From Patescibacteria group bacterium (GTDB taxonomy: Bacteria > Patescibacteriota > UBA1384 > XYA2-FULL-43-10 > 1-14-0-10-43-13), in assembly GCA_041671645.1 (NCBI GenBank), contig JBAZBD010000001.1, positions 173,365 through 237,364 of the forward strand: DNA of 64,000 bases. Reading direction: 5' to 3'. The notes below the pieces were generated by a model. The model was given only the letters and a program-made list of their open reading frames with translations. It ran no database searches and was not told where the DNA came from. The position numbers and the translations under genes were made by a program. This document shows, in pieces, positions 1,006 to 61,049 of the stretch (positions within the stretch are counted from its first letter, which is position 1; each line of letters opens with the position of its first letter).

Positions 1006-2244
1006 ATGCAACACAACAACCAAAAATACGCCTTTGTGCTTGGTCGTGAGCGCGATTTGTGCTTGACGGAACTCTATGCAGTTCTAGTTCGTTTTGGTTT
1101 TTGTTTTACAGTTCCCAGTGTATATGACAATGTCGCAATCATCAATATTGAAAATGCGAACGAAAGTGATGTGGCGAGCTTGATTGAGAGTCTGGGCGGC
1201 ACGATGAAGATTTTCCGCATGATCGTCCCAGTCGATAAGCAAGTCAAGGACAGAATAATTTCTTATATTACGAGCTCAGAGAGAAGCCAGAAGAAATTCA
1301 ACTATACTATTTCTTCTTACTCACGACTTTTCAATTACAAATCGATCTTTGATCTCGGTCTTTCGATCAAAAAGGAGCTGAAAAAGGAGCTATCCTTGCG
1401 ATTCGTTGAAATTAGAGAGGGCAAGGACGCTTCAAGTATTTTGTCCTTGAAAAATCATTTTGTGGATCAAGGTTTTGAGTTTGGCTTGTTCGAAGCAGAT
1501 CTAGGCATTTTAATCGCTCTCACGGATGCGGAAGAGTGGGGCGAGCGTGATTATGATAAGCCATCTGGCGACAAGAGAAGCGGAATGCTTCCGCCAAAAT
1601 TAGCCAGGATGATGATCAATCTTGCGCTAGGATCGAAGAAACAAGAGGGAAAATCTCTCGTGATTGATCCTTTCTGTGGATCGGGCAATATTCTGATCGA
1701 AGCATTGCTTCTTGGCGCTGACGCGATGGGCTCGGACGTGAGCGAAAAAGCGGTTAATGATTCGATGAACAATATCAAATGGCTTGTTGAAAACCCGAAA
1801 TATAGAGACAAAATTACTGCCAAAAATCCGAAGCCGAAGGTGCATATAGACCAAGCCGATGCTTCCAATGTAGATTTTGCAAAACTACTTTCGACTTTCG
1901 ACTTTCGACTTTCAGACTACAACAGCGTAGCTGTGGTGGCCGAGCCGTTTCTGGGCGAGCCCAAGAAATTTAAACCTAGCTTGAACGCAGTCAAGGGCGA
2001 ATATGCAAAGATTCAGGAATTATACATTGATTTCCTCAAGAATATTCGACAATCAGGGCTTCCAATTAATTCGTTGGTTTTGATTTTTCCACTGGTAGAA
2101 ACGCTCGAAGGCAAGCTCTACAGTCTCTTCGACGCAAGTGTTGACGAAATTGAAAAAATTGGCTATAGTGTACTCACTAAACCACTTGTTTATGGTAGAG
2201 AATACCAGGTTGTGAAGCGAGAGATCGTTTTACTACAGTTTTAA
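1006..2244 (+). CDS. SAM-dependent RNA/DNA methyltransferase (UPF0020/THUMP-type, N6-adenine/N2-guanine MTase-like)
   Basis: Motif I DPFCGSGNILIEA and motif IV-like AEPFLGEP are present. The ORF is intact at 412 aa. Confidence 0.6.
   Translation: MQHNNQKYAFVLGRERDLCLTELYAVLVRFGFCFTVPSVYDNVAIINIENANESDVASLIESLGGTMKIFRMIVPVDKQVKDRIISYITSSERSQKKFNYTISSYSRLFNYKSIFDLGLSIKKELKKELSLRFVEIREGKDASSILSLKNHFVDQGFEFGLFEADLGILIALTDAEEWGERDYDKPSGDKRSGMLPPKLARMMINLALGSKKQEGKSLVIDPFCGSGNILIEALLLGADAMGSDVSEKAVNDSMNNIKWLVENPKYRDKITAKNPKPKVHIDQADASNVDFAKLLSTFDFRLSDYNSVAVVAEPFLGEPKKFKPSLNAVKGEYAKIQELYIDFLKNIRQSGLPINSLVLIFPLVETLEGKLYSLFDASVDEIEKIGYSVLTKPLVYGREYQVVKREIVLLQF
1888..1918. repeat. Heptanucleotide tandem repeat (TCGACTT)x3-4 inside the methyltransferase CDS, in frame
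   Basis: The sequence is tcgactttcgactttcgactttcagact and encodes STFDFRLSDY. Confidence 0.8.
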
Positions 2245-2272
2245 TTTGTAAATTATCCCAAAGGGGTACGTC

Positions 2273-2563
2273 ATGGCTCATAAAAAAGCCGCAGGTAGTA
2301 CAAGATTAGGTCGCGATTCCGTCTCCAAACGACTTGGAGTCAAGGTTTTTGGTGATCAATTTGTTACCGCTGGCGGAATCATCATCAGACAGCACGGTAC
2401 CAAATTTTATCCAGGACTCAACGTCGGAATGGGCGATGATTATACGATCTACGCTTCTATCGATGGCTTGGTTAGATTCCAGGAAAAACAGGTTACAGCT
2501 TTCAATGGCAACAAAGACAAGCGAACTTTTGTACATGTAGACGAAATTGTGGAAGGTAAATAA
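2273..2563 (+). CDS. rpmA: 50S ribosomal protein L27
   Basis: [29 protein letters not shown]...GTKFYPG is canonical L27. Confidence 0.95.
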
Positions 2564-3075
2564 TGCTTAAAATTCTCGAAAAATATACCAAGAAAAACAT
2601 TCCTGAAATTCGATCAGGCGACACAGTCAAGGTTCATATCCTGGTCAAAGAAGGCGCCAAAGAGCGCGTTCAGATCTTCGAAGGTCTAGTCATCGCTGTT
2701 CAGCATGGCCAGTCACTCGACGGTACTTTCACTGTTCGCAAAGAGTCCTTCGGTATCGGTGTTGAGAGAACATTTCCTCTTCACAGCCCAAGAGTTGTCA
2801 AAGTTGAGAGAATCAAACAATCCAAAGTCCGCCGAGCCAAACTTTACTTCATGAGAGAATTGACTGGCAAACACGCACGTCTCAAGGATCTCAACCGTGA
2901 TCACAAGGTTTGGGAAGAGAAGGGCGCCGAAGAAGAGCTAGAGAAGATTGCAGCTGAAACTGCTGCTATCGCTGAAGCCGCTGCTGCTGAAAAAGCTGCA
3001 GAGGAAGCCGAAATCGCAGCCAAAGTTGAGGCAGTCGCAGGCGACCGTATCGTAGAGGATAAAAAAGAAGACTAA
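2563..3075 (+). CDS. rplS: 50S ribosomal protein L19 with an Ala/Glu-rich C-terminal extension
   Basis: SGDTVKVHILVKEGAKERVQIFEGLVIAVQ...VRKESFGIGVERTFPLHSP...RRAKLYFMRE matches L19. The start overlaps the rpmA stop. Confidence 0.9.
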   Translation: MLKILEKYTKKNIPEIRSGDTVKVHILVKEGAKERVQIFEGLVIAVQHGQSLDGTFTVRKESFGIGVERTFPLHSPRVVKVERIKQSKVRRAKLYFMRELTGKHARLKDLNRDHKVWEEKGAEEELEKIAAETAAIAEAAAAEKAAEEAEIAAKVEAVAGDRIVEDKKED

Positions 3076-3103
3076 CTACCAAGTTATATACAGTGCTCCA
3101 AAA

Positions 3104-3137
3104 AATACCCAATCGAAAGATAATGGGTATTTTTTTA
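3104..3137 (+). terminator. Rho-independent terminator after rplS
   Basis: The stem aataccca/tgggtatt has loop atcgaaagataa and is followed by a T7 run. Confidence 0.75.
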
Positions 3138-3142
3138 ATTAA

Positions 3143-3337
3143 ATGCTATCATTGAAAAAACAACTTGGAGGAAATATGAACTCAGAAGAAATTGTCAAAG
3201 CAGTAGAAGCGGCTGTTGATACATACAAACAAGATCTTGATCAGGTGGGCAAGAAGCAAAAGCAAGTTCTAAGCGATTTTATTGGTCGTTTGGAGCAAGA
3301 AAAGATGGATAAGATACGGAAGGAAATAGTACTATGA
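3143..3337 (+). CDS. Small hypothetical protein; the likely start is the ATG at 3176 after GGAGG
   Basis: The ORF has the RBS ggaggaaat-ATG at 3176, and its stop overlaps the next gene's ATG (ATGA). Confidence 0.4.
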   Translation: MLSLKKQLGGNMNSEEIVKAVEAAVDTYKQDLDQVGKKQKQVLSDFIGRLEQEKMDKIRKEIVL

Positions 3338-18976: not shown

Positions 18977-20257
18977 ATGTGTCTCACAATTCCAGGAAAA
19001 ATTGAATCGATAGATGACGTGGGTATCGCCACCGTATTATCATCCCGCGAAAAGGCTCAGATTGACCTCTCGCTTGTTTCTGACGTTTACCCCGGTGATT
19101 GGATACTTTATGCATCAAACAGGGCTGTCAAGGCAATCTCGGAGGAAGATGCCAAGGAGATCATAGCCTTGCTCGAAGACAATTATAGCCAGGTCGACGT
19201 TAGCCGTTTGCCCCTGCAGTTCAAGAAAATTATATACAAAGTTCGCTCGGGCAATTCTGATTTGACCAAGGACGAGATAGTTTATCTTTTGAACCTCAAA
19301 GGCAAGAATAACCTCGAAACTTTGTATGCCGAAGCCAATACTCTACGCAAAGACAGGATCAAGGATTTCGTTTGCATCCATGGCATTATTGAGTTCTCAA
19401 ATTATTGCAAAAATCTCTGCCTCTATTGTGGCATCCGAAAAGGTAATAAGGTCGAGCGATATCGGATGAAACGAGAAGAGATTGTTAAAGCTGCGAGGCA
19501 GGCAGTTGACGAGGAGGGCTACAAGCTCCTGGTCCTGCAAAGTGGGGAAGACGATGAGTATTCTGATGACGATTTGATCAAAATTGTAGCGGAAATCAAG
19601 AAAGAACTGCGAGTCTTTGTCTTTCTTTCTGTCGGCGAGAGAAGTATTAATTTTTACAAAAAAGCTTATGAAGCTGGGGCGTCTGGGGCTCTGATTCGAT
19701 TCGAAACCTCGGACCCCGAATTTTATTCAGAATTACGCCCGGGCCACAAATTGGACGACCGATTAAAATTAATCAAACAGATGACGGAGCTCGGCTACTA
19801 CATGGCGACAGGCAATATCGTCGGCTTGCCAGGGCAAAGTCTTGAAAGTCTGGCAGACGATTTGCTTTTGATCAAAAAGTTAAATGCGCCAATGATCAGC
19901 TCTGGCCCGTGGCTCCCAGCCAAAGGAACGCCGCTGGTGCAAGTCGAAAGTCGAAAGTCGAAAGTCGAAAGTTTGGAAATTATGCTGAAGTATATTGCAG
20001 TTGCTAGGTTCTTGATGCCGGAGGCGAAGATTCCGGTCACGACAGCGCTTGAGACGCTTGACCCAGAGAACGGACGACACAAGGGACTTTTGGCGGGTGC
20101 CAGCGCTCTAATGTTTAGCCTGACCCCAGAGAAATATGCGGGCGATTATTCTATCTATGACAACAAATATCGCGAGCGTGAGAAGGTCTGGCAGAAATAT
20201 GGCTTGTTTAAGGGTGAAGAGAGCTACGAAATGTTGGCTGATAGGCTTAAGGTTTGA
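18977..20257 (+). CDS. Fusion protein: N-terminal HypC/HupF-like domain plus a HydE/PylB/BioB-family radical SAM domain
   Basis: The N-terminus MCLTIPGKIESIDD...IDLSLV...GDWILY matches the HypC signature MC(L/I)x(I/V)PG. After that comes IIEFSNYCKNLCLYCGIRKGNKVERYRM (CxxxCxxC) with HydE-like motifs VLQSGED and GNIVGLPGQS. Confidence 0.75.
   Translation: MCLTIPGKIESIDDVGIATVLSSREKAQIDLSLVSDVYPGDWILYASNRAVKAISEEDAKEIIALLEDNYSQVDVSRLPLQFKKIIYKVRSGNSDLTKDEIVYLLNLKGKNNLETLYAEANTLRKDRIKDFVCIHGIIEFSNYCKNLCLYCGIRKGNKVERYRMKREEIVKAARQAVDEEGYKLLVLQSGEDDEYSDDDLIKIVAEIKKELRVFVFLSVGERSINFYKKAYEAGASGALIRFETSDPEFYSELRPGHKLDDRLKLIKQMTELGYYMATGNIVGLPGQSLESLADDLLLIKKLNAPMISSGPWLPAKGTPLVQVESRKSKVESLEIMLKYIAVARFLMPEAKIPVTTALETLDPENGRHKGLLAGASALMFSLTPEKYAGDYSIYDNKYREREKVWQKYGLFKGEESYEMLADRLKV
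19943..19972. repeat. Heptanucleotide tandem repeat (GTCGAAA)x4, in frame in the radical SAM CDS
   Basis: gtcgaaagtcgaaagtcgaaagtcgaaagt encodes VESRKSKVES. It is the reverse-complement unit of the repeat at 1888-1918. Confidence 0.8.
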
Positions 20258-26590: not shown

Positions 26591-26637
26591 TAAAACAAAA
26601 AGTGTTTACAACTCTGTGGACTGCTTGGGGACAATTA

Positions 26638-26667
26638 AGTTGAAAGTTGAAAGTTAGAAGTTGAAAG
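26638..26667. repeat. Heptanucleotide tandem repeat (AGTTGAA)x4, intergenic
   Basis: The sequence is agttgaaagttgaaagttagaagttgaaag. Confidence 0.75.
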
Positions 26668-26760
26668 ACAAGGGTGGGAGGGAATAATTATGCAATAGTT
26701 CACGATGCAGTGGCATAAGGCTTATAATAAGACAGCTGACAAACTAGAAGTTCATTTTTT

Positions 26761-26843
26761 AATTTTTATTTCTTAATTGTTAATCAATTTTTAATTATAA
26801 ATTATTAATTAGACATTGATTAGAAATTAGTATTTAGAAATTC
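26761..26843. repeat. AT-rich ~85 bp element; inverted copy of 860-950, immediately upstream of dnaX
   Basis: It is near-identical to the reverse complement of 860-950, with one 6-nt indel. Confidence 0.75.
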
Positions 26844-26856: not shown

Positions 26857-28413
26857 ATGGCTTTTTACCAAAAATATCGGGCAAAGAAATTCGGCGAGAT
26901 GGTCGGCCAAGAACATGTTGTTGGCACTATTTTGGCGAGCATTGCGGGCGATCGCATGGTTCACGCCTATCTTTTGGCGGGGCCAAGAGGGATCGGTAAG
27001 ACTTCAGTTGCCCGTCTTTTGGCCAAGGCAGTTAACTGTGAGAAAGTGGCCAAAGATCGCAAAGAGGGCAAGACTGATGGCGAGCCATGTGGCAAATGTA
27101 GTGCTTGTATTGAGATCGGAAACGGCCAAGCGATTGATGTGATAGAGATCGACGCCGCCTCGCATACCGGTGTTGACGAAATACGCGATGTGATCGAGAA
27201 AGCTCGTCTTTCACCCGTCAGATTGGCCAAAAAGGTTTATATAATCGATGAAGTCCATATGCTCTCCAAGAGCGCCTTTAACGCACTTTTGAAAACTCTG
27301 GAAGAGCCACCAAGCCATGCCATATTTATCTTGGCTACTACTGAAATTCACAAAATACCGGCAACTATAATTTCTCGAGTTCAGAGATATGATTTTCGTC
27401 GTGCGACCAAGGAAGATTTGGTAAAAAATTTGAAGCGCGTTGCAGCTGCTGAAAAAATGGACGTTTCTGATGAAGCGATTGAGCTTATAGCTATCCTGTC
27501 TGCAGGCGGGCATCGTGATGCACTCGGCCTTCTCGAACAGCTTTCTTCGGCCAAAGGCAAGATCATTTTGGAGTCGGCAAGAGAAATCTTGGGAGTATCA
27601 AGTCAAAAGGAAATTTTTGATTTTCTGGGGGCGATTTTTAATAACAACCCGGAGGAGGGATTAAAAATCGCCCATACTGTTTATGATCAGGGGCTTGATC
27701 TGCTTGAGTTCAATCGTGGTGTGATCGACCGTCTGCGCAAGATTATGGTTTTGTCCGTCTCTGATTCAAGCCTCTCTGATGAGACTCAGGATAGTGCCGA
27801 ACAGCTCAAAGAAATTGCGAAGGGTCAGAAGATTGAAAGACTTCTGTCGCTGATTAACATTTTTGTCGAGGCAGGGATGATGCTCAAAGATGTCTCGTAT
27901 CCTCTCTTGCCAATCGAAATGGCGGTTGTCAAATCAGTTGAAAGTATAAAGTTGAAAGTTGAAAGTGCGAATAAAGAAGAAAAATTGATCATTAGTATTC
28001 CCGAACCAAAGAAACCTGAACCAAAAATACCAGACCAAGAGCAGACCAAACCAGAATTGTCTGTTCCCCCTGACTCCGTGCCTGTGCCCGTGCTAGAAAT
28101 GACCAAGGATCTCTGGATTCGGATTATAGATGAGACCAAGAAGGAGAATTCTACACTGGCCGCTCTGCTTCGAGATGCTCATCCAACAGAAGTTACCGCC
28201 GAGAAATTGATCTTGGGGGTCAAGTTCAAATTTCACAAGGACAAGATTTCTGAGACCAAAAACATGGCGGCTCTCGAGAAGATCGTCTGCGCCGTGACTG
28301 GCTCTCCATATAATGTTTCGTGTAGACTGGTAAGCGACAAGCCCAAGGCCACATCTACCGATCCGAACGAGATCGAAAAAGCAGTAGGCGAGATCTTCGA
28401 TCTCAGTTCATAA
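26857..28413 (+). CDS. dnaX: DNA polymerase III gamma/tau subunit
   Basis: The Walker A is GPRGIGKTSVARLLAKAVNCE. The Zn motif CGKCSACIEIGNGQAIDVIEIDAAS is present. Confidence 0.9.
   Translation: MAFYQKYRAKKFGEMVGQEHVVGTILASIAGDRMVHAYLLAGPRGIGKTSVARLLAKAVNCEKVAKDRKEGKTDGEPCGKCSACIEIGNGQAIDVIEIDAASHTGVDEIRDVIEKARLSPVRLAKKVYIIDEVHMLSKSAFNALLKTLEEPPSHAIFILATTEIHKIPATIISRVQRYDFRRATKEDLVKNLKRVAAAEKMDVSDEAIELIAILSAGGHRDALGLLEQLSSAKGKIILESAREILGVSSQKEIFDFLGAIFNNNPEEGLKIAHTVYDQGLDLLEFNRGVIDRLRKIMVLSVSDSSLSDETQDSAEQLKEIAKGQKIERLLSLINIFVEAGMMLKDVSYPLLPIEMAVVKSVESIKLKVESANKEEKLIISIPEPKKPEPKIPDQEQTKPELSVPPDSVPVPVLEMTKDLWIRIIDETKKENSTLAALLRDAHPTEVTAEKLILGVKFKFHKDKISETKNMAALEKIVCAVTGSPYNVSCRLVSDKPKATSTDPNEIEKAVGEIFDLSS
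27936..27966. repeat. Heptanucleotide tandem repeat (AGTTGAA/AGTATAA) inside dnaX, in frame
   Basis: agttgaaagtataaagttgaaagttgaaagtg encodes VESIKLKVES. Confidence 0.8.
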
Positions 28414-28501
28414 TTTCTAATTCTTAATTTTTATTCAAATATTAATTAATAATTAAAAATTGATTAAAAATTAGAAACTACCAATTAACAATTACTCGAA
28501 T
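28414..28501. repeat. AT-rich ttctaatt-family intergenic element upstream of dnaB
   Basis: It shares ctaattaataattNNaattaaaaattgattaaNaatta with the element at 860-950. Confidence 0.65.
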
Positions 28502-32904: not shown

Positions 32905-32947
32905 AGTCTCGGATTAAGCTCGGATAATATTTGAAAATAATGCAGTC

Positions 32948-32990
32948 TGGGACTAAATAATATCATACTATACCATATTATTTAGTCCCA
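32948..32990. promoter_or_regulatory. Perfect 16-bp-arm inverted repeat (hairpin/operator) abutting a promoter -35 box
   Basis: tgggactaaataatat, an 11-nt loop, atattatttagtccca. No T-run follows. Confidence 0.6.
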
Positions 32991-32995
32991 TATGC

Positions 32996-33024
32996 TTGAC
33001 AAGTTGTGATCTGGTTGATATAAT
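32996..33024 (+). promoter_or_regulatory. Consensus sigma70 promoter
   Basis: TTGACA, a 17-nt spacer, TATAAT. Confidence 0.65.
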
Positions 33025-33030
33025 TGCTTA

Positions 33031-33547
33031 ATTTAGTACATTAAAAACTTGAGTTAGAGGGAACGAGATGGGGAGCGGAATTATATTTACCCCGATATAA
33101 TTTCAAAGAGAAATAATTTTTAAAATATATGGTTATTTCCCCCAGCTCGTTCCAACTAAAACAAAAATAACAAGCTATAAGGAATAGCAAGAAAACAAAA
33201 AGCCCATCCTTCGCATAAAGCTACGGAGGGCAAGAAGGAACAAAAACAAAATGCATTTAGACCAGGCTTAAATTAAATAATCATAACGCCTGACAAGATC
33301 TAATACGCAACCAATCAAAAAATTCTCCTATACATTGATAAAATATCAAGGAGGGGAGAAATCAGCATTAGAGACCTAGACCCACTCTCTTAAGGGATGC
33401 AAATCTCTTGGGGGAATCCAAAGTCGAAGCCTCTAAAAACGGGCATAAATGATGAAGCCGCAACATTATTAAAATATTGATTTGCGATCAGTCTTCAAAT
33501 CATTTCTGCCCAAACTAATAAGCCCAGTCGAAAGATTGGGTTTTTTA
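33031..33547 (+). ncRNA. Candidate ~520-nt non-coding RNA of unassigned class. It lies between a consensus promoter and an intrinsic terminator and has no ORF of 60 aa or more on either strand.
   Basis: A long-range stem GGAACGAG (33058-33065) / CTCGTTCC (33140-33147) encloses an inner GGGG...CCCC. There are A-rich spacers and several GGA motifs. The terminator is at 33522-33547. Confidence 0.35.
33522..33547 (+). terminator. Rho-independent terminator
   Basis: The stem cccagtc-gaaag-attggg is followed by TTTTTT and then TTGCCAaaaat, which is shared with 35146. Confidence 0.65.
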
Positions 33548-33667
33548 GTTGCCAAAAATATGGATTAAGCTTGCATAAATCATATTTTTGTGTCATATTG
33601 CGGGCAGAAGTTAGGCCACAATAGTGTGAGTCTAATTTAGTTTTCGCGCACCATAAAGGAGGACGCG

Positions 33668-37950: not shown

Positions 37951-39945
37951 ATGACTAACTTATTGGAAAACCTAAACAAACCGCAGCAAGAGGCTGTTTT
38001 GGCGACGGAGGGGCCTGTCTTGGTCTTGGCTGGAGCGGGATCTGGCAAGACGAAGGCGCTGACTCACCGGATCGCATATTTGATTCGCGAGAAGCATGTC
38101 TCGCCCTATTCTGTCTTGGCTGTCACCTTCACGAATAAGGCAGCAGCCGAGATGCAATCTCGTGTTTCGAGTTTGCTCTCTGGGAATAAGGAATTAGGAA
38201 TTATGAATAAGGGAAGTGAAAACCCTAATTCCTACTCCGATATTCCTAATTCGGCGGATGCATTCCGTCTACCTTGGATGGGGACTTTTCACTCCATTTG
38301 TGTTCGGATTTTGCGGCGCGAAGCTGATTTTGTCGGGTATTCTAGAAGCTTCACCATTTACGATTCACAGGATTCGCTTTCGGTGATCAAGAAGATTATG
38401 AAGGAGCAAAATGTCGATCCGAAACATTTCAATCCCAATTCCGTCCAGTATTTCATTTCCGGTGCCAAGAACGAGCTGATCGATTCGGCCGGTTACAAAA
38501 AGTATATCAACTCTCCGTTCGAGGCGGTCACCAGCAAAGTTTACGAGCGCTACGAGAAGTACTTGCGCGAAGCAAATGCGATGGATTTTGACGATCTGAT
38601 CATGCAATGTGTCTTCTTGTTTCAAAAAAATCCGGCTATTTTGGAAAAATATCAAAATTTATTTCGCTATATTCTAGTTGACGAGTACCAGGACACCAAC
38701 CAAGCACAGTATTTGTGGGCAAAGTTGTTGGCCGAGAAGCACAAGAATATTATGGTGGTGGGTGACGATTATCAATCTATTTACAGTTGGCGCGGTGCGA
38801 ATTTCAAGAATATTTTGAATTTTGAGCGTGATTACAAAAACGCGGTCGTGGTCAAATTGGAGCAAAATTATCGCTCGACCAAGACGATCCTGGATGCGGC
38901 CAACGAGGTGATCAAATACAACGAGAACAAGACCGACAAGAAACTCTGGACCGAGAAGGAAGAAGGCGCCGCAATCACGGTTTACGAGGCACTAAACGAA
39001 AAAGATGAGGCAGAATTCTTGGCCATGGAGATTAGATCGATGCGTAATCGCGGTATGGATTACAACGACTTTGCAGTTCTGTACCGGACGAATGCTCAAT
39101 CTCGTGCGGTCGAGGAAGTTTTCTTGCGTTTCAAAATGCCATATCGAGTTGTCGGCGGTCTTCGCTTTTACGAACGCAAAGAGATCAAGGATATGATTTC
39201 ATATTTGAGATTGATGTCCAATCCTGCTGACCACGAAGCCTTGAGCAGAATCGTCTCGTCTCCGCCGAGAGGAATTGGCGACAAAACACTCGAGCAAATT
39301 CGCGGATTTCGCTATGACGATCCGGAAGAGAAATTGATGAGCTTGCCCAAGAAAGTCCAGGATTTCTATAAAGTGTTGAAGGATTTGTCGCTTGCTTCGT
39401 TGACTGCTTCGCTCGATCAATTAATTATCAAAATTGCAGAGAGAACTGGTTTCAAAGAATATTTGCTCGACGGCACCCCGGAGGGAGAAGCGAGATGGGA
39501 AAACGTCGAAGAGCTCTCCACCGTAGCGGAGCAAGCCGAGGCCAATCATGAAATTAAAAAAGATCTTCAAGACGAAAACGACGACGTTGATCGTACAGTT
39601 CTGGAAGAGTTTCTAGAACAAGTTGCGTTGGTCCAAGATACCGATCAAATGAACGAGGGCGACGGTGTCGTCACTCTAATGACTTTGCACTCTGCCAAAG
39701 GACTAGAATTCAGCGTCGTATTTATCGTCGGCGCCGAAGAAGGAATATTTCCACATTCTCGCTCCCTCATGGACGCGTCCGAGATGGAGGAAGAGCGTCG
39801 CTTGGCTTATGTTGGCATCACTCGCGCCAAGGAGCGGCTCTATATGATCCATGCAGGAGAGCGCAACATTTATGGCCGTTTCCAATCAAATCCAAGATCT
39901 CGTTTCATCGATAATATTCCGGAACATTTACTGGATCAGATTTAA
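37951..39945 (+). CDS. uvrD: ATP-dependent DNA helicase UvrD/PcrA
   Basis: The Walker A is GAGSGKTKALTHRIAYLI. TFTNKAAAEM, ILVDEYQDTN and VGDDYQSIYSWRGA are present. There is an in-frame ~25-aa insertion at 38186-38252. Confidence 0.9.
   Translation: MTNLLENLNKPQQEAVLATEGPVLVLAGAGSGKTKALTHRIAYLIREKHVSPYSVLAVTFTNKAAAEMQSRVSSLLSGNKELGIMNKGSENPNSYSDIPNSADAFRLPWMGTFHSICVRILRREADFVGYSRSFTIYDSQDSLSVIKKIMKEQNVDPKHFNPNSVQYFISGAKNELIDSAGYKKYINSPFEAVTSKVYERYEKYLREANAMDFDDLIMQCVFLFQKNPAILEKYQNLFRYILVDEYQDTNQAQYLWAKLLAEKHKNIMVVGDDYQSIYSWRGANFKNILNFERDYKNAVVVKLEQNYRSTKTILDAANEVIKYNENKTDKKLWTEKEEGAAITVYEALNEKDEAEFLAMEIRSMRNRGMDYNDFAVLYRTNAQSRAVEEVFLRFKMPYRVVGGLRFYERKEIKDMISYLRLMSNPADHEALSRIVSSPPRGIGDKTLEQIRGFRYDDPEEKLMSLPKKVQDFYKVLKDLSLASLTASLDQLIIKIAERTGFKEYLLDGTPEGEARWENVEELSTVAEQAEANHEIKKDLQDENDDVDRTVLEEFLEQVALVQDTDQMNEGDGVVTLMTLHSAKGLEFSVVFIVGAEEGIFPHSRSLMDASEMEEERRLAYVGITRAKERLYMIHAGERNIYGRFQSNPRSRFIDNIPEHLLDQI
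38186..38252. repeat. AT-rich inverted-repeat insertion (aggaattaggaatta ... ctaattcctactccgatattcctaattc), in frame inside uvrD
   Basis: It is related to the intergenic taattcctaa/ttctaatt repeat family. It interrupts the conserved LLSG-(insert)-GTFHS region. Confidence 0.65.
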
Positions 39946-40539
39946 GCATTCATTTACATGCAAATTATTTAGTTCTATAATTATACCAATAGCATCTGGG
40001 GAGGGTTGCCTTTCCTTACGATGGTGTACTTAAAGTAATCCAGACGATTGAAACGGCTGAAACGATCTCCAATCTTCACTCACATCCATTAATGGAGGGG
40101 GGAGACTGATCAGACAGATATTCTCACCGCTTTAGCGAAACGAAGCAATTTCGAACCTATTTGGTTCTGCCTATGCTTTCGTATTATTTTAATGAACTGT
40201 CAGAAGGTAAGCTTCTAGTTTTAAAGAAGCTTGAAAAAGGAAGGTTTCCTATTTTGTGTTTTGCGACTATTCTATAATCATTTTTTGTACTTAATTTTGT
40301 ATTAAATTATCAGTCTCTATATTTGCCATAGCATTATGTTGTTGGTAAAATATTGGCATAGATTTCGGGGAGGGTTGTCGAACGTTTTCGGCTGTATATA
40401 GCTAAATGCGCTCCACATTCCTATTTTGCATTTGTTAATAATTGTTGTTCCTCTTTCTCCCGCCCCACCCGTCCTCCCCTCGGGCAGGGGAGGAGCCGTT
40501 TGACTAGTTTTGGCATTGTAGTAGAATGGTAAGTAATAT

Positions 40540-41552: not shown

Positions 41553-42461
41553 ATGTCGATTGATTTAACTGATAAAGAACAACTTACAAAATATTTGAAG
41601 TCTAAGGGGTTATTGGCCAAGCAAAGTTTGGGCCAGAATTTTCTAGTTGATCGAGAGGTACTGGAAAAAATCGTAGAAGCGGCTGAGATAAAAACTAGCG
41701 ACACTGTAATCGAAGTCGGCCCAGGTCTTGGCACGTTGACGGAGGAATTAATTTTGCGGGCAGGCAAAGTCATCGCAATTGAGAAAGACGATAAGTTGGC
41801 AAAATTGTTGAGTTCACAATTTTGTCATCCTGAACTTGATTCAGGATCCAGTATTGTTAACCTAGATTCCGGATCTCAAGCCGCAGTCCGGAATGACAAT
41901 CTGGTTGTGCTAAACTCCGATATTCTAGCGGTCAATGTTCCGGAGCTGACGGGCGGAAAACCTTACAAAGTGGTGGCAAATATCCCTTATTACATTACGG
42001 CCAAAATCATCAAGTTGTTTCTGACCTCAGAGAATAAGCCTGAGTCAATCGTTTTGTTAGTGCAAAAAGAGGTGGCTGAGCGTATTTGCGCTAAGCCAGG
42101 ACAATTATCAATTCTCGCGCTATCTGTCCAAGCATTTGGCGAACCGGAAATTGTAAGCGTCGTGAAGCGGGATTCTTTTTTCCCAGCTCCTGCAGTTGAT
42201 TCGGCGATACTTCGTATCAGAATTCAGAATTCAGAATTCAGAATTCAACCGGAAGACGAGAGAGAACTTTTCCGTCTGATCCATATTGGCTTTGCCAGCA
42301 AGCGCAAAACTCTCATAAACAATTTATCGGCAGGACTTCGAATTGATAAAAAAGCAATAGCGGATATAATTAAATCAATCGGACTTGGCGAAAACGCCAG
42401 AGCACAAGAGCTGAGTCTGGAAGAGTGGAAGAAGCTATCATTAATATTGAAACTGAAATGA
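41553..42461 (+). CDS. rsmA: 16S rRNA (adenine1518/1519-N6)-dimethyltransferase
   Basis: GQNFLVD, the motif I EVGPGLGTLT and NIPYYIT are present. Confidence 0.9.
   Translation: MSIDLTDKEQLTKYLKSKGLLAKQSLGQNFLVDREVLEKIVEAAEIKTSDTVIEVGPGLGTLTEELILRAGKVIAIEKDDKLAKLLSSQFCHPELDSGSSIVNLDSGSQAAVRNDNLVVLNSDILAVNVPELTGGKPYKVVANIPYYITAKIIKLFLTSENKPESIVLLVQKEVAERICAKPGQLSILALSVQAFGEPEIVSVVKRDSFFPAPAVDSAILRIRIQNSEFRIQPEDERELFRLIHIGFASKRKTLINNLSAGLRIDKKAIADIIKSIGLGENARAQELSLEEWKKLSLILKLK
42217..42247. repeat. Heptanucleotide tandem repeat (CAGAATT)x4, in frame in rsmA/ksgA
   Basis: tcagaattcagaattcagaattcagaattcaacc encodes IRIQNSEFRIQ. Confidence 0.8.
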
Positions 42462-45460: not shown

Positions 45461-45585
45461 AATTACTAATTAATAGTTACTAATTACCTAATTAAATCTC
45501 AAGATCCGAGTGTCCAATTGGACATTAAATAATTGGGACTTATTTAGAAATTAGAGCAATTAGATCAATTAGAAATTCTATATAT
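45461..45585. repeat. AT-rich ttctaatt/aattag-family repeat cluster; it contains the 14-bp perfect palindrome TGTCCAATTGGACA (45511-45524)
   Basis: ttactaattaatagttactaattacctaatt ... ttagaaattagagcaattagatcaattagaaatt. Confidence 0.6.
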
Positions 45586-50633: not shown

Positions 50634-50705
50634 CGCCCCGATACTGAATCGGGGCATTTTTATTTGGCCATTGAGAGAAGTGATCGCTTTTGTTATCATC
50701 TATTT

Positions 50706-52130
50706 ATGAGCAAATATTATATTACGACCCCGATCTATTATATCAACGACGTTCCACATATTGGCCACGCGTACACTACGATCGCGGTGGACGTATTGGC
50801 GCGTTATCATCGCGCCAAAGGCGACGATGTTTTTTTCCTGACTGGTACTGACGAACATGGCGCCAAGATAGCTGAGGCGGCTGAAAAATTGGGCAAGACG
50901 CCTCGAGAATTTGCGGATGAACTGGTTCCGAAATTTGCTGACGTCTGGAAGAAGTTGAACATTTCATATGACCAATTTTTTCGCACGACCAACCCAAAGC
51001 ATGAGGAGTATGTTCAGGATTTTGTCGAGGATTTGCAAGAAAATGGCTATATCGAAAAGCGTGAATACGAAGGGCTATACTGTGTCGGATGCGAGAAATT
51101 CTTGAAAGAATCAGACCTAGTGGAGGGCTGTTGTCCAGATCACAAGAAGCCACCGGTCAAGCAAAAAGAGGAGAATTATTTCTTCAAGCTGTCAGAACTC
51201 CAGGACAAATTGCTTGAGCGGATAGAAAATGGGGAGCTGAAAATTGCCCCCGAATCACGAAAGAACGAGATTGTTGGCAAGATCAAGCAAGGTTTGGAGG
51301 ATGTCTCGATTTCTCGTGCGGCGGTAGAGTGGGGCGTCTCATACCCAGGCGATTCCAAGCAGACAATTTATGTTTGGATTGATGCCTTGCTCAATTATTA
51401 CACTGCTTGCGAGATATACGAGAAGGAGAAATTCTGGCCTGCCAGTCTGCATCTGATGGCGAAGGATATCGTCTGGTTTCATGCCGTGATCTGGCCAGCG
51501 ATGCTGATCGCTCTTGATCTGCCATTGCCCCGCAAGGTCTTTGCCCACGGTTTCTTTACCGTGAATGGCCAGAAAATGAGCAAGACGATTGGCAATGTGA
51601 TTGATCCAAATGTAATTATCGAGAAATATGGTGCCGATGCAGTCAGATTCTATCTACTCTCCGCCTTCCCTTTTGGCGAAGACGGCGATGTCTCGCTCGA
51701 AAAGCTGGCCCTCTCTTACAACAAGCTGGCCAATGATATTGGTAACTTGCTGCAGAGAACAATCTCGATGATGGTCAAGTATAACGTATCAGGTATAACG
51801 TATAAGGGAGAAGAAGATTCTGTAATACGTGATACGAAATACGAAATACGAATCGACAAAGAATTAGACAGTCTTGATTTCGCTGGGGCGTTGAAGAAAA
51901 TCACCGATGTAGCACAGGCAGAGAATAAATATATTGCTGACAGAGAGCCCTGGACTTTGGCAAAAGAGGGCAAGACGGAGGAGCTGACACAAACTTTACA
52001 GCATTCATACGATTGCTTGACCTCATTGGCTCAAGTGTTGCAGCCTTTCATGCCAGAAACGGCAGAGAAAATGGCTAGTCAATTAAAATCTCTAGAACCG
52101 ATGCCACTTTTCCCTCGAATTGAATCATAA
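50706..52130 (+). CDS. metG: Methionyl-tRNA synthetase (short form); the ORF could extend to 50664
   Basis: The HIGH region is YYITTPIYYINDVPHIGHAYTT, the Zn knuckle is CVGCEKF...CPDH, and KMSKT is present. Confidence 0.9.
   Translation: MSKYYITTPIYYINDVPHIGHAYTTIAVDVLARYHRAKGDDVFFLTGTDEHGAKIAEAAEKLGKTPREFADELVPKFADVWKKLNISYDQFFRTTNPKHEEYVQDFVEDLQENGYIEKREYEGLYCVGCEKFLKESDLVEGCCPDHKKPPVKQKEENYFFKLSELQDKLLERIENGELKIAPESRKNEIVGKIKQGLEDVSISRAAVEWGVSYPGDSKQTIYVWIDALLNYYTACEIYEKEKFWPASLHLMAKDIVWFHAVIWPAMLIALDLPLPRKVFAHGFFTVNGQKMSKTIGNVIDPNVIIEKYGADAVRFYLLSAFPFGEDGDVSLEKLALSYNKLANDIGNLLQRTISMMVKYNVSGITYKGEEDSVIRDTKYEIRIDKELDSLDFAGALKKITDVAQAENKYIADREPWTLAKEGKTEELTQTLQHSYDCLTSLAQVLQPFMPETAEKMASQLKSLEPMPLFPRIES
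51779..51855. repeat. Direct repeats inside metG, in frame: (gtataacgtat)x2 then (ATACGAA)x3
   Basis: agtataacgtatcaggtataacgtataag ... gatacgaaatacgaaatacgaatcg. Confidence 0.7.
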
Positions 52131-55741: not shown

Positions 55742-55954
55742 ATGAAAACTATTTCTACAAATGAACTTCAGGATCAGATTTCCAAGGTGATTAAGGAAGT
55801 CGAAGGCGGGGAAGTCTATCAAATCAGCCGATACTCCAAGTCGGTCGCTTATTTGGTGTCCAAACCAGAGTTTGAAAAATTAATTACTGGTAGCGAATGC
55901 AAAGAGTGTATGAAGGACATGCGGAAGATAGCAAAGAAAATTTCTAATTCTTAA
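55742..55954 (+). CDS. Phd/YefM-family type II antitoxin-like protein (orphan)
   Basis: MKTISTNELQDQISKVIKEVEGGEVYQISRYSKSVAYLVS matches the Phd/YefM N-terminus. No toxin ORF follows. Confidence 0.55.
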   Translation: MKTISTNELQDQISKVIKEVEGGEVYQISRYSKSVAYLVSKPEFEKLITGSECKECMKDMRKIAKKISNS

Positions 55955-56034
55955 TTAATAATTTCTAATCAATTACTAATTTTAAATTTCTAATTAATAA
56001 TTGAATAAAAATTAAGAACTAAAAACTAATAATT
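55938..56034. repeat. AT-rich ttctaatt-family intergenic element upstream of iscS
   Basis: aaaatttctaattcttaattaataatttctaatcaattactaattttaaatttctaattaataatt. Confidence 0.65.
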
Positions 56035-57264
56035 ATGGAAAATATTTACTTAGACAATGCGGCGACCACCAAACCTGATCAGAAGGTGATTGAGGCGATG
56101 AGTCGAGTCTCGGAGGAGGCATGGGGCAATCCATCTTCGATTCACTCTGTCGGCCAGGAGGCGGCCCTTGAGGTTGATAACGGTCGAGAGACCGTAGCTA
56201 AGTTTTTGGGTTGCGACGCTACCGAGGTGATATTTACCTCTGGCGGATCGGAAAGCGATAACCTCGCTTTGCGAGGGTTAGTCGGAAGTCTGAGGGCAGA
56301 AGCTGGAAGCATTTCCTCAAACCTCAAACCTCAAGCCACTAACACATTACCTCATATCATCACTGGTGCAGGTGAGCATCACGCCGTCCTCCACACTGTA
56401 CAAGAGCTCGAGAAGGAGGGTTTGATCGAGGCGACCTACCTCAATCCTGATGCGAATGGTTTAATTACTCCAGAACACGTCATCGAGGCGATCAGAGACA
56501 ATACGATTTTGGTCAGTTTGATGTACGTAAACAATGAGACAGGCGTCGTCACGCCGATTGCCGAGATCGGCAAAAGACTTTTAACTTTCAACTTTGAACT
56601 TTCAACTCGAAATAAATCCGCGAAGCGAATTTATTTCCACACTGACGCAGTTCAAGCGGCCGAATGGCTAGATATGAATGTCCAAGATTTGGGCGTTGAT
56701 TTACTCACTTTTACATCTCACAAGATCCATGGTCCAAAGGGCATTGGAGTATTGTACGCGAAAAAGGGTACGCCGATTAAACATCAAATTAGCGGTGGAG
56801 ACCAAGAGTTTCGGCTGAGAGCTGGAACGGAAAATGTCGCTTCAATCGCTGGGATCGCACAGGCGATCACAAATATCGAGCGAGGAGCGGCCGATAGAGT
56901 TCAAACGTTGCGCGATAGACTAATCGACGGAGTTGTGAAGAATATTTCTGATGCGATCGTGAACGGTGGCAAGGCACCACGATCTCCTCATATCGCCAAT
57001 ATCTCTTTCTTGAACGCCGAAGGCGAAGCAATTATATTGAATCTCGATTTCTTGGGTATCCAAGTCTCTTCAGGCAGTGCTTGCACATCGAGATCGCTCA
57101 ACCCAAGTCACGTGTTGTCCTCGATGGGAGTCCCGCCCGAGAAGGCACATGGCTCGATTCGCTTCTCCTTAAGTCGTGAGACTACCGCAGAAGAGATTGA
57201 TAAGGTGATTGAAGTATTACCAGGAATTATTCTTAAACTGCGACAAATGTCGCCATTTAAGTAA
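56035..57264 (+). CDS. iscS: Cysteine desulfurase (IscS/NifS)
   Basis: The PLP lysine motif SHKIHGPKGIGVLY and the active-site SSGSACTS are present. Confidence 0.9.
   Translation: MENIYLDNAATTKPDQKVIEAMSRVSEEAWGNPSSIHSVGQEAALEVDNGRETVAKFLGCDATEVIFTSGGSESDNLALRGLVGSLRAEAGSISSNLKPQATNTLPHIITGAGEHHAVLHTVQELEKEGLIEATYLNPDANGLITPEHVIEAIRDNTILVSLMYVNNETGVVTPIAEIGKRLLTFNFELSTRNKSAKRIYFHTDAVQAAEWLDMNVQDLGVDLLTFTSHKIHGPKGIGVLYAKKGTPIKHQISGGDQEFRLRAGTENVASIAGIAQAITNIERGAADRVQTLRDRLIDGVVKNISDAIVNGGKAPRSPHIANISFLNAEGEAIILNLDFLGIQVSSGSACTSRSLNPSHVLSSMGVPPEKAHGSIRFSLSRETTAEEIDKVIEVLPGIILKLRQMSPFK
56578..56608. repeat. Heptanucleotide tandem repeat (ACTTTCA/ACTTTGA)x4, in frame in iscS
   Basis: cttttaactttcaactttgaactttcaactcg encodes LLTFNFELSTR. 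It is the reverse-complement unit of the repeat at 27936-27966. Confidence 0.8.
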
Positions 57265-58746: not shown

Positions 58747-58765
58747 CATTTCCCCTCCTTTACGG

Positions 58766-59008: not shown

Positions 59009-59017
59009 TTTTTCCTC

Positions 59018-59386: not shown

Positions 59387-59421
59387 CAGTGCCCTCCCGT
59401 GTATGAGATACTTAGTTTTCT

Positions 59422-59625
59422 TCAGAAGTGAATGTCGCCACCCGCTCCGCCATGGTTACTCGGACTGTGCATCTGTTCATGTGCCAGCTCGCCAACAAGT
59501 AATATCCACCCGATAAAAGCGAGGTAAAAGCCCAGTTCACCAATTTTTGACTTTTTCCCTCGGGTGCAGAACGCAATGATTATTCCGATGGCCAGCATCG
59601 GAAGGCTGATGTACCATATAGGCAT
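59422..59625 (-). CDS. Small membrane protein (67 aa, 2 TM); the ORF frame extends to 59826
   Basis: The RBS aaggggg precedes the ATG at 59625. Confidence 0.45.
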   Translation of the reverse strand: MPIWYISLPMLAIGIIIAFCTRGKKSKIGELGFYLAFIGWILLVGELAHEQMHSPSNHGGAGGDIHF

Positions 59626-59635
59626 AAGAACCCCC

Positions 59636-59833
59636 TTATTCTTCCACGCTGTCCGGAATATGCCGGAATCCGCCACAAATGTGGCATAAGATTGTCTGCC
59701 GTTTGCAACGGCTGCAGAAATTGCCGACTTCGCTTGGCACGACTGCTTCACAATCAGACATGTACTTTGCCTGTGTCGCGGCAATGTCGGGACACGTACA
59801 TGCGAAAGGTTTCTTTTCGGGCTCATCTTTCAT
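59636..59833 (-). CDS. Cys-rich zinc-ribbon-like small protein (65 aa); the ORF frame extends to 59860
   Basis: MKDEPEKKPFACTCPD...CSRCKRQTILCHICGG. The RBS GGAGG is 8 nt before the ATG at 59833. Confidence 0.5.
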   Translation of the reverse strand: MKDEPEKKPFACTCPDIAATQAKYMSDCEAVVPSEVGNFCSRCKRQTILCHICGGFRHIPDSVEE

Positions 59834-59856
59834 ATCACAAGCCTCCCTTGACCGAA

Positions 59857-59885
59857 ACAATAAAATAAACTATGATGTTTGTCAA
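59857..59885 (-). promoter_or_regulatory. Sigma70-like promoter for the minus-strand small-protein operon
   Basis: Read on the minus strand: TTGACA, a 17-nt spacer, TATTGT. Confidence 0.5.
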
Positions 59886-59902
59886 TAGTAAACCAAGCAA
59901 AA

Positions 59903-61000
59903 ATGGCAAAAGAAAACGAAAAAAAGAAAATTAAGGTAGCAATTGGAATGTCCGGTGGAGTTGACTCTTCCGTCGCGGCCATGCTTCTCAAAGAGCAGGG
60001 CTTCGAAGTGGTCGGCCTTTTTTTGAAGCTCTGGAGCGATGAGAGCTGCGCTATATCTCGCGAAAATGCCTGTTGCGATGAGAAAGCCTTGGCTGACGCG
60101 CGCAAGGTGGCGGCGGAGCTCGAAATACCATTTTACGTTGTTGACGCCAGGGAAAAATTCAAGAAAGATATTGTTGATTATTATCTGGATGAATATCGGG
60201 CTCTGCGTACTCCAAATCCCTGCGTTCTTTGCAATAAGAAGATCAAGTTTGGCTGGATGCTCGAATTTGCAGAGCAGATCGGTTGCGAAAAAGTTGCGAC
60301 TGGACATTATTCGAGAATCGAAAAGACAGACCATTACAGATTATTCCGAGGCAAAGATAAGAACAAAGACCAAAGTTACTTTCTCTGGCAATTGGGCCAG
60401 GAGCAATTGTCTAAAATCATTTTTCCGCTCGGTGAAATGACCAAAGATCGGGTTCGTGCCTTGGCCAAGGAGAAAAATTTGCCAGTCTACGAAAAGGTCG
60501 AGAGCCAGGAGATATGTTTCGTGGCAGACGATTATCGAGAATTTCTGAAGCGTCATTTACCTCCAGAATATTTTGAATCTGGACGGATTGTCGACCAAAA
60601 GGGATATACAGTTGGTCAGCATGAGGGCTTGGTCAATTATACGATTGGACAACGAAAGGGCATTAGCCAATCAGCAAGTCAGCTAGCCAGCGAGTCAGTA
60701 AATAGACAACCGCTTTATGTTGTTGGGTTTAACTTGGAGAAGAATGAATTGATCGTGGGCGAAAATGCAGACACTTCACGAAGTGAAATGATTGTGGCTG
60801 ATGCATACATCAACAAGTTTGAAGACGTTAAGGTCAAGATTCGATATAGGGCCGAAGCTGTGACCTGCACTGTAAAATCCCTTATTCCTAATTCCTCATT
60901 CCTTATTCAATTTGAAACTCCTCAGCGCGCTGTGACACCTGGGCAATCGGCCGTGTTCTACTGCGGCGACGAAGTCGTTGGCGGGGGAATCATTCGATAA
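59903..61000 (+). CDS. mnmA: tRNA-specific 2-thiouridylase; the ORF could extend to 59879
   Basis: The PP-loop is KVAIGMSGGVDSSVAAMLL, and the catalytic Cys region is CNKKIKFGWMLE. Confidence 0.9.
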   Translation: MAKENEKKKIKVAIGMSGGVDSSVAAMLLKEQGFEVVGLFLKLWSDESCAISRENACCDEKALADARKVAAELEIPFYVVDAREKFKKDIVDYYLDEYRALRTPNPCVLCNKKIKFGWMLEFAEQIGCEKVATGHYSRIEKTDHYRLFRGKDKNKDQSYFLWQLGQEQLSKIIFPLGEMTKDRVRALAKEKNLPVYEKVESQEICFVADDYREFLKRHLPPEYFESGRIVDQKGYTVGQHEGLVNYTIGQRKGISQSASQLASESVNRQPLYVVGFNLEKNELIVGENADTSRSEMIVADAYINKFEDVKVKIRYRAEAVTCTVKSLIPNSSFLIQFETPQRAVTPGQSAVFYCGDEVVGGGIIR

Positions 61001-61001
61001 A

Positions 61002-61049
61002 CCCCTTCTAACTTCCCCTTCTAACTTCCCCTTCTAAAGGGGAAGAACC
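61002..61049. repeat. 13-mer tandem repeat (ccccttctaactt)x2.5 ending in the hairpin CTTCCCC-ttctaaa-GGGGAAG
   Basis: ccccttctaacttccccttctaacttccccttctaaaggggaag. Confidence 0.7.

Follow-up and report, generated by a model that had tools for sequence, protein, structure and literature searches.

Short heptanucleotide arrays lying in frame in housekeeping genes of a Berkelbacteria-like genome

Introduction

Heptanucleotide repeats are the most abundant class of long simple sequence repeats (SSRs) in many bacteria, and polymerase slippage has been proposed as their origin, according to the accounts cited here (PMC4679880, PMC4692102). We describe short arrays of tandem 7-nt units that lie in frame in housekeeping genes of a 64,000-nucleotide stretch of DNA from a Patescibacteria group bacterium (assembly GCA_041671645.1, contig JBAZBD010000001.1, positions 173,365 to 237,364 of the forward strand), called the window in the following, and in related genomes. 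The arrays were created and kept repetitive on the DNA level and not via selection on the peptides that they encode. The reading that we prefer, with a probability of roughly 0.55, is that they form a heptanucleotide microsatellite family, similar to the short tandemly repeated repetitive (STRR) sequences of cyanobacteria, which is renewed by slippage or template switching, including copying from one array to another, and whose members are neutral or selfish by-products.

Several properties are shared with the long heptanucleotide SSRs of prokaryotes (Mrazek and colleagues 2007, as reported in PMC4679880 and PMC4692102). As far as these accounts describe the latter, both consist of tandem 7-nt units, favour period 7 over neighbouring periods and have polymerase slippage on a register of about 7 nt as their proposed cause, and some form inverted pairs, as in Xanthomonas (PMC4692102). 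The arrays have at least three head-to-tail copies (2.9-4.7), and period 7 is in excess over chance and over other periods. However, the long SSRs covered by these accounts are mainly intergenic and non-triplet units are rare in genes, whereas 10 of the 17 arrays of the window lie in frame in genes; unlike the SSRs described there, the window family also has a length quantised near 4.4 units and copies common to several loci.

The cyanobacterial STRR sequences and the heptamers TAACTGA and GGGGA(T/C)T (PMC4679880, PMC4692102) are likewise lineage-typical arrays of few copies, with several unit types per genome, and they are occasionally found in open reading frames (ORFs) in the stop-free orientation, where they give repeats of seven amino acids. 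TAACTGA, which contains stops in one orientation, is nearly always intergenic. The present arrays work like STRRs but are not members of that family, as they differ in phylum (the host is one of the Patescibacteria) and in units, 10 of 17 lie in ORFs and a far higher share is found in conserved housekeeping genes. The cyanobacterial STRR units (STRR1-3), which belong to heterocystous species and lie mainly between genes, were reportedly described by Mazel et al. in 1990, and Elhai is said to have reported in 2008 on Nostoc small dispersed repeats that are often embedded in heptameric tandem repeats, not on heptamer arrays themselves.

Small elements inserted in frame in genes have been described in Rickettsia (PMC10969869, citing Ogata 2000 and 2002). 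Like the Rickettsia palindromic elements (RPEs) in that account, the arrays are dispersed copies that keep the frame of housekeeping genes unrelated to one another, in a bacterium that has a small genome and depends on a host, and the added residues appear compatible with the protein fold. RPEs are presented there as palindromic elements of about 150 bp that encode a conserved peptide, whereas the window arrays are about 31 nt long, 7-nt periodic, mostly non-palindromic and not always net insertions. Related copies at non-orthologous sites and presence or absence among relatives, as expected of RPEs or transposable elements of the miniature inverted-repeat type (MITEs), were both observed; a palindromic or terminal-inverted-repeat structure with target-site duplication was not found at the arrays, only those of uvrD and metG having an inverted partner. 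Repetitive extragenic palindromic (REP) sequences and the hairpins formed by their doublets (REPINs; PMC3116915) offer another likeness, as very short dispersed repeats of 20-35 nt that occur as singlets and as short-spacer hairpin doublets. REPs, however, are extragenic and tied to REP-associated tyrosine (RAYT) transposases.

An excess of heptamer SSRs, in-frame selfish repeats and very short dispersed repeats are therefore all known already. Full-text literature searches returned no account of heptamer arrays in proteins of the Candidate Phyla Radiation (CPR) or of Berkelbacteria, and in the literature searched such arrays are thus unreported.

Results

Tandem heptamers exceed chance expectation in the window

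Arrays were located with Tandem Repeats Finder (TRF), host genes were assigned with Pfam, and coordinates are window positions. The window, of which about 87% is coding, contains 17 arrays; the ten that lie in ORFs are carried by 8 of about 56 genes. A strict scan detected seven period-7 arrays and one period-13 array, and none at any other period from 4 to 15, against a chance expectation of 0.0 arrays (50 third-order Markov shuffles of the window). The recurrence of units within the window has a probability of about 3.5e-5. The sequence AGTYGAAAG was present 17 times against 1.9 expected; its solitary copies outside arrays (2 against about 1.9 expected) were neither enriched nor depleted.

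An initial annotation of the window had listed some of these arrays, together with a 13-mer array, and had regarded them as a family; that they are a non-random, related set acting on the DNA level is supported. Every array on that list was recovered by TRF, with 2.9-4.7 copies and 80-100% matches across the heptamer arrays. The relation by reverse complementarity that it had noted between loci was also confirmed by reading the sequences: TCGACTT is the complement of a rotated GTCGAAA, and TTTCAAC that of a rotated GTTGAAA. Additional arrays were found in uvrD and mnmA, as one further array each in metG and iscS, in an intergenic region (45461-45494) and as AT-rich tracts.

Pfam identified the hosts as a UPF0020/N6_N4 methyltransferase, a HypC-radical SAM-BATS protein, DnaX, RsmA/KsgA, MetG, a class-V aminotransferase (IscS/NifS), MnmA and a UvrD/PcrA helicase. 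Five arrays are of the GTYGAAA type. The methyltransferase array (1887-1918, minus strand) consists of 4.4 copies of ACTTTCG with 96% matches by TRF and is the complement of AGT(CGAAAGT)n; it lies in the ORF at 1006-2244, which encodes a methyltransferase-like protein of 412 residues, and is translated in frame as LLSTFDFRLSDY. The radical SAM array (19941-19972, plus strand; AAGTCGA x4.6, 100% matches by TRF) is in frame in the HypC-radical SAM-BATS gene at 18977-20257 and encodes QVESRKSKVES. The dnaX array (27936-27966, plus strand; AGTTGAA x4.4, 83% matches) is located at the end of domain III in the gene at 26857-28413, and an intergenic array (26637-26667, plus strand; AAGTTGA x4.4, 83% matches) lies about 190 nt upstream of dnaX. 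The second array of iscS (56577-56607, minus strand; ACTTTCA x4.4, 87% matches) is the complement of AGT(TGAAAGT)n and encodes LLTFNFELST; the first array of the same gene (56035-57264) is at 56315-56334 on the plus strand (CCTCAAA x2.9).

Other units are used at the remaining sites. The uvrD/pcrA gene (37951-39945) carries in frame 4.3 copies of a GGAATWA (GGAATAA-type) unit at 38183-38212 on the plus strand, and the mnmA gene (59879-61000) carries 4.7 copies of AATTCCT, the complement of the GGAATWA type, at 60876-60908 on the minus strand. In rsmA/ksgA (41553-42461) the array (42217-42247, plus strand; TCAGAAT x4.4, 100% matches) is placed in the linker after the conserved VDSAIL motif and encodes IRIQNSEFRIQ. 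The metG gene (50664-52130) has two plus-strand arrays, GTATAAC x3.9 at 51779-51805 and AATACGA x4.1 with 86% matches at 51824-51852. The intergenic array at 45461-45494 (plus strand) is made of 4.7 copies of AATTACT by TRF.

Degenerate AT-rich period-7 tracts with AATTNNN units were found in five intergenic regions (861-950, 26756-26842, 28437-28494, 45540-45573 and 55952-56029) and show both 7- and 11-nt periodicity. Four of them directly precede the start codons of the methyltransferase gene, dnaX, the gene at 28502 and iscS; the remaining tract, at 45540-45573, is set about 110 nt upstream of its gene. The four genes listed by name or position have no obvious Shine-Dalgarno sequence, whereas other genes of the window have GGAGG-type sites.

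The arrays are DNA-level objects filtered by the reading frame

Translation showed that all genic arrays keep the reading frame, as the initial annotation had stated. A perfect repeat of each consensus unit was then translated in its actual frame. An in-frame stop codon is expected from a perfect repeat in dnaX (TGA), uvrD (TAA), the first metG array (TAA) and mnmA (TAA), and all four arrays depart from their consensus precisely at the stop codon: unit 2 of the dnaX array is altered to AGTATAA, which removes the in-frame TGA, and one unit of the mnmA array is altered so that the in-frame TAA is avoided. The stop-free arrays are perfect in the radical SAM gene, in ksgA and at the first iscS site, and 96% matched in the methyltransferase gene. 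It was considered whether an alternative genetic code could undo the argument from stop avoidance; this was rejected, as TGA is the stop codon of 8 of the 56 genes, ksgA and the radical SAM gene among them (TAA ends 34 and TAG 14).

Both orientations of one unit occur in genes of the same strand and give rise to unrelated peptides, for example VESRKSK and LSTFDFR. Because opposite orientations of one unit encode unrelated peptides, selection on a peptide repeat is excluded as the explanation. These results show that the arrays were created, and have been kept repetitive, on the DNA level.

Period-7 arrays are a clade-wide family

The RsmA, IscS and DnaX proteins of the window have as nearest relatives proteins named Candidatus Berkelbacteria. 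Related DNA was gathered by an RsmA-based scan of species-representative genomes, by look-ups of exact proteins and by a pattern scan; related loci are designated below by L numbers. Berkelbacteria-like DNA contained 103 period-7 arrays in 205.6 kb (0.50 per kb), whereas the same scan of DNA from other phyla gave 59 arrays in 738.7 kb (0.08 per kb). In the Berkelbacteria-like set period 7 exceeded all other periods, the runners-up being 14 (31 arrays), 9 (26 arrays) and 8 (20 arrays).

Array length has a sharp mode at 31-32 nt, or about 4.4 units, to which 23 of 90 arrays belong. Of the 60 coding arrays, 19 have this length and just one is longer than 35 nt; noncoding arrays are spread more widely, with lengths up to 41, 49 and 79 nt. 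Period-7 arrays are a clade-wide family in Candidatus Berkelbacteria, with a typical form of four units plus three or four bases.

In 10 related genome fragments, 106 arrays reduce to 62 canonical units, which form a connected A-rich continuum and not a few discrete families (49% A in the canonical orientation, a choice of orientation that favours the A-rich strand). The commonest unit differs between the three fragments examined in detail: GTYGAAA in the window, AAGAAGN in L259/L263 and ATTCYAG in L260. The initial annotation had put forward GT(C/T)GAAA as a possible shared DNA-binding motif. This motif is indeed over-used, accounting for 5 of the about 12 arrays that are not AT-rich, but a single shared DNA-binding motif is unlikely because so many units are used among the related arrays.

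The near-identical contigs L260 and L261, the sole such pair compared, are identical over 8.5 kb, array lengths included, which is uninformative on strain variation.

The same sites carry other units in related genomes

The array sites of ksgA, uvrD, mnmA, metG, dnaX and the radical SAM gene are also occupied in relatives, where other units are found. Most orthologues thus carry arrays of other units at the same sites, and not the same residues without repeat structure. The ksgA linker, which contains TCAGAAT x4.4 in the window, has an identical array in L001 (78% amino-acid identity) and TCAGTTG units in L002; in other relatives it holds degenerate AAAGTCA units (L006) or a palindromic insert (L004). 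At the uvrD site, GGAATWA units with an inverted partner in the window correspond to GGAGTCA units with a short hairpin in L001. At the mnmA site, CTNATTC in the window, ATACGAA-like units in L259 and CCAGNTT in L260 are present as four units each, with equal length. The metG site of L260 has an inverted pair made of the unrelated units AAGCTAG and ATTCCAG.

Presence or absence of arrays could be compared with a close relative in which the gene is intact. In L259 the metG arrays are absent and the gene is 6-12 codons shorter there; the second iscS site of L259 holds just CTTTCGACT (1.3 units) and is eight codons shorter than the four units of the window. Decay at constant length was also seen: the dnaX site of L262 and the intergenic site upstream of it are equal in length to those of the window but decayed, with only a G.....A register left, whereas the window arrays are near-perfect. 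The stretch at this intergenic site measures 35 nt in L262 and 36 nt in the window. In this 68%-identical relative the region upstream of dnaX (26600-26760 in the window, 1520-1700 in L262) is conserved on both sides of the intergenic array and includes a TTATAAT box; it may be a promoter or a small RNA in which the array is embedded.

Protein alignments gave a similar picture. The same hotspots in 24-25 relatives of RsmA and IscS hold peptides that are 7-residue-periodic or of a translated-palindrome type, and 7-residue-periodic peptides occupy the DnaX array site in an alignment of 15 relatives. Protein length in relatives ranges from 272 to 383 residues for RsmA and from 387 to 501 residues for IscS.

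Only some arrays are net insertions

The initial annotation had proposed that each genic array inserts 8-10 residues into an otherwise conserved protein. This holds for iscS, uvrD and the radical SAM gene. The IscS arrays fall in gaps of 15 residues (first array) and 9 residues (second array, compared with PDB 9wep) relative to solved homologues, and the UvrD array lies inside an insertion that amounts to about 24 residues in comparison with PcrA. Outgroups are about 5 residues shorter at the radical SAM site, where relatives in the clade hold arrays or much longer inserts. No such net gain was found in metG, mnmA, dnaX or ksgA. MetG, compared with the Aquifex MetRS (2csx), has one one-residue gap per side across both arrays and is equal in net length; MnmA exceeds PDB 9hln by only 2 residues; the DnaX array stretch equals in length that of the 68%-identical relative; and the KsgA linker exceeds relatives by at most 3 residues. 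Simple net insertion at every site was therefore rejected for metG, mnmA, ksgA and dnaX by length comparison. The array in these four genes occupies a stretch that is array-like, or looks like a decayed array, across the clade.

The encoded 7-11 residues fall in an IscS loop, the end of an IscS helix, the KsgA linker and the end of DnaX domain III. In an AlphaFold (AF2) model of IscS (mean predicted local distance difference test score, pLDDT, 82.8), the first array is in a loop, with a pLDDT below 50 for residues 93-102, and the second is modelled inside helix 175-192, where seven residues correspond to about two helical turns. The best reading of these positions is that the arrays occupy loops, linkers or ends of helices that tolerate them.

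Arrays are conserved and have near-identical copies at other loci

The ksgA array is identical in the window and L001 at 31 of 31 bases, compared with 85% identity over the whole 461-nt alignment. Similarly, an imperfect array in RsmI is the same in L259 and L260 across 41 nt, every synonymous site included; upstream of it many third codon positions differ between the two, and the downstream flank is also well conserved.

Near-identical copies were also observed at unrelated loci. The five GTYGAAA arrays of the window are all AGT(YGAAAGT)x4, identical in phase and length, and a comparison of these five revealed no flanking similarity, shared termini or target-site duplications. The uvrD and mnmA arrays of the window are 93.5% identical over 31 nt, in opposite orientation. 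In GCA_026397135.1, AGAATAAAGAAGGAAGAAGAAAGAAT[A/T]AAG is found both in the RsmA linker and in RsmI, with 29 of 30 bases identical, and the unit of this array has no stop to avoid. Near-identical pairs of arrays are about 3-4 times commoner within genomes than between them.

An inverted partner is present only for the uvrD and metG arrays. The uvrD array and its inverted partial copy (38183-38252, plus strand) and the two metG arrays (51775-51855, plus strand) each form a hairpin in which arms of 21 nt, 81% complementary, enclose a spacer of 22 nt; the predicted folds are moderately better than those of shuffles, at -22.5 kcal/mol for the uvrD element (z -2.5) and -20.7 kcal/mol for the metG pair (z -3.0). 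In L001 an intergenic hairpin element, placed at a non-orthologous site, matches the window uvrD element over 68 nt at 76%. Single arrays form no hairpin and fold weakly (z -1.9 for the radical SAM array). Several units contain short palindromes (TCGA, GAATTC, AATT) that allow neighbouring units to pair, and it is plausible that these could aid slipped intermediates.

Two other kinds of hairpin were noted. The rsmA/ksgA gene contains at 41822-41900 an in-frame palindromic element of about 78 nt (TTGTCATCCTGAA..TTCAGGAT...ATTCCGGA..TCCGGAATGACAA; fold -23.2 kcal/mol, z -3.0) that encodes FCHPELDSGS...RNDN. It is missing from the 78%-identical L001 orthologue, its terminal 22-28 nt recur in L003, L008, L018 and L259, and translated-palindrome peptides of this kind occupy the insertion hotspots of RsmA and IscS clade-wide. 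Terminator-like hairpins at 3100-3140 and 33510-33545 have loops containing TCGAAAG (C-GAAA-G), the core of the commonest array unit.

GTCGAAA arrays occur beyond the clade

Three tandem copies of GTCGAAA were found in at least 120 metagenome contigs of 30-73% GC. Among viral contigs, 45 contained this pattern in three copies and 24 contained GTTGAAA, against 10 and 2 for ATCGGAA and ATCGAAG, which were used as controls having the same base composition as GTCGAAA and being likewise stop-free. The GTCGAAA pattern is thus 4-20 times commoner than matched controls. Among the metagenome matches listed, arrays mostly begin in an A-run and end in ...GAAAG(T), a non-random phase, and their length peaks at 25-27 and 30-33 nt; in the metagenome and viral loci L058-L222, GTCGAAA arrays reach 157 nt. 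Long stop-free spans are no guide to genes in these matches, and coding context was accordingly not inferred. On these sequence counts GTCGAAA is favoured well beyond Berkelbacteria.

The 13-mer array and other features of the window

The 13-mer array on the 3' side of mnmA (61002-61049, plus strand; 61002-61037 by TRF) consists of 2.8 copies of CCCCTTCTAACTT with 100% matches and differs in kind from the heptamer arrays. Only its last copy pairs with AAGGGGAAG, which results in a hairpin between mnmA and the next gene (-13.5 kcal/mol, z -2.7) with no T-run downstream. No copy of the 13-mer was present in the related loci searched. Judged by its sequence, the locus resembles a hairpin whose 5' arm has been duplicated in tandem.

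The gene at 18977-20257 is a single ORF that fuses a HupF/HypC domain (residues 1-66), a radical SAM core and a BATS domain, and its relatives P0364-P0366 have the same architecture. Two ORF-free stretches were noted, of about 760 nt (32905-33667, 84% identical to L001) and about 600 nt (39946-40539, holding the G+C-rich hairpin CCCGTCCTCCCCTCGGGCAGGGGAGGAGC). E-value Rfam scans of both gave nothing credible; possibly they are unrecognised RNA genes. In the whole window, Rfam at the gathering threshold reported two tRNAs only and ARAGORN detected no tmRNA. Strand bias is strong, the plus strand carrying 48 of the about 56 genes, and the GC skew, positive along the whole window, is in keeping with a single leading-strand replichore.

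Discussion

The reading that we prefer starts from observations made at several loci: filtering by frame and by stop codons, clade-wide persistence of sites, a seed at one site, decay beside near-perfection, and copies shared between loci. A slippage-type process, which the initial annotation had included among its suggestions, or a copying process is the best explanation of the arrays. Slipped-strand mispairing or template switching, with a register of 7 nt, would give rise to the arrays and renew them, and one array could be copied onto a short seed or onto an old array elsewhere in the genome. In genes only net changes of three units (21 nt, or 7 codons) would keep the frame, so that a genic site would toggle from about 1.4 units to about 4.4 and back. 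If a full-length array were copied onto a seed or an old array, exactly 21 nt would be added in one step, and phase, length and imperfections would be passed on together. Decayed arrays could be refreshed at constant length. This would explain why lengths peak at 31-32 nt, why phase is shared and how arrays are refreshed with no change in length. Most likely a mutational process specific to the lineage yields the arrays as neutral or selfish by-products, of which those that the proteins tolerate remain; they would be neither switches nor protein-binding sites.

Several points weigh against this explanation. First, the steps of the mechanism are inferred and none was directly observed; in addition, the sole near-identical pair of contigs compared revealed no length variation. 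Second, the gain of three units in one step from a 1.4-unit seed is not predicted by simple slippage, and therefore reiterated slippage or copying from a full-length donor would be needed. Third, the length differences of about 5 codons (radical SAM gene) and about 8 codons (iscS) are not exactly 7, and some noncoding arrays are also 31-32 nt long, where frame selection cannot act. Fourth, the shared phase and the imperfect patterns suit discrete elements equally well as conversion, and better conservation than that of the flanks could also mean function. Finally, the preference for GTCGAAA in diverse metagenome and viral contigs has no explanation within this scheme.

The discrete-element alternative is that the arrays are tiny non-autonomous mobile elements, singlets of about 31 nt and inverted-pair hairpins of about 64-70 nt (as in REP/REPIN), which are moved by an enzyme encoded elsewhere and survive when in frame. 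It would readily account for the identical phase and length of the five GTYGAAA arrays, for near-identical imperfect copies at unrelated sites, and for the geometry common to the uvrD and metG inverted pairs. The match of the L001 intergenic hairpin to the uvrD element at a non-orthologous site also agrees with it, as do the genome-specific commonest unit types in the three fragments compared in detail, and the RPEs (PMC10969869), the REPINs (PMC3116915) and the Nostoc small dispersed repeats would provide precedents by analogy. However, at the sole site that is clearly empty, that of iscS in L259, a one-unit seed and not unrelated sequence is present, no target-site duplications or conserved termini flank the arrays, the 62 unit types form a continuum and not a few discrete families, single arrays lack a hairpin, and a 31-nt insertion would disrupt the reading frame. 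We consider mobile elements an unlikely explanation, although the main rival to the one preferred.

A dedicated copying process is distinctly unlikely in our estimation. Such a process would write or overwrite heptad-periodic tracts of about 31 nt at fixed array sites, perhaps templated by other arrays or by RNA, and might be carried out by a polymerase, a primase or a reverse-transcriptase-like enzyme. If this were true, the form of a seed plus three units would have been settled on because 21 nt are frame-neutral, and the arrays would be minimal genetic elements of a new class, adapted to residing within essential genes where genomes are dense with genes.

We give little weight to the proposal that the arrays are functional cis-elements kept by selection, which might be bound by a protein that recognises 7-nt repeats in DNA or RNA, or might act as mRNA structures by which translation is retarded where domains meet. 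Arrays exceed their flanks in conservation, synonymous sites included, their sites are conserved clade-wide, and the metG hairpins are kept with different sequences in L260 and the window. Arrays adjoin Pfam domain ends in ksgA, dnaX and the radical SAM gene, but this placement is equally expected from tolerance alone. Binding of heptamer repeats by cold-shock proteins, with one protein to each unit, has been reported (PMC4679880); here, however, the 62 units in both orientations leave no common motif, at orthologous sites many arrays have decayed or are missing and nothing suggests that this was compensated, single arrays fold weakly and the arrays match no Rfam family.

Classic phase-variable contingency loci, chance and assembly artefacts are refuted to the extent that the present data permit: a unit length that is not a multiple of three does let copy-number changes toggle the frame, but, as the initial annotation had argued, a change of one unit would frameshift housekeeping genes, the hosts (dnaX, metG, iscS, mnmA, rsmA and uvrD) being single-copy genes of this kind and not surface, restriction or virulence genes, the tracts are short (about 4 units), the expected count is about 0, and the same arrays are found in independent metagenome-assembled genomes, with identical array lengths in two independent assemblies of one relative.

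If renewal by slippage and copying between arrays is the correct picture, then in a streamlined CPR genome roughly one gene in seven contains 7-11 repeat-derived residues, for example those for a clamp-loader subunit, a tRNA synthetase and a cysteine desulfurase. This points to a strong lineage-specific mutational process on a 7-nt register, which is accessible by comparative genomics in organisms that cannot be cultivated. The 21-nt rule would be a simple and testable account of how a non-triplet microsatellite lives inside essential genes. The arrays would also be a source of error in alignment, phylogenomics and domain annotation of CPR proteins, the length variation in these families being largely repeat-derived, and for the organisms themselves they would be a steady supply of new loop and linker sequence in conserved proteins.

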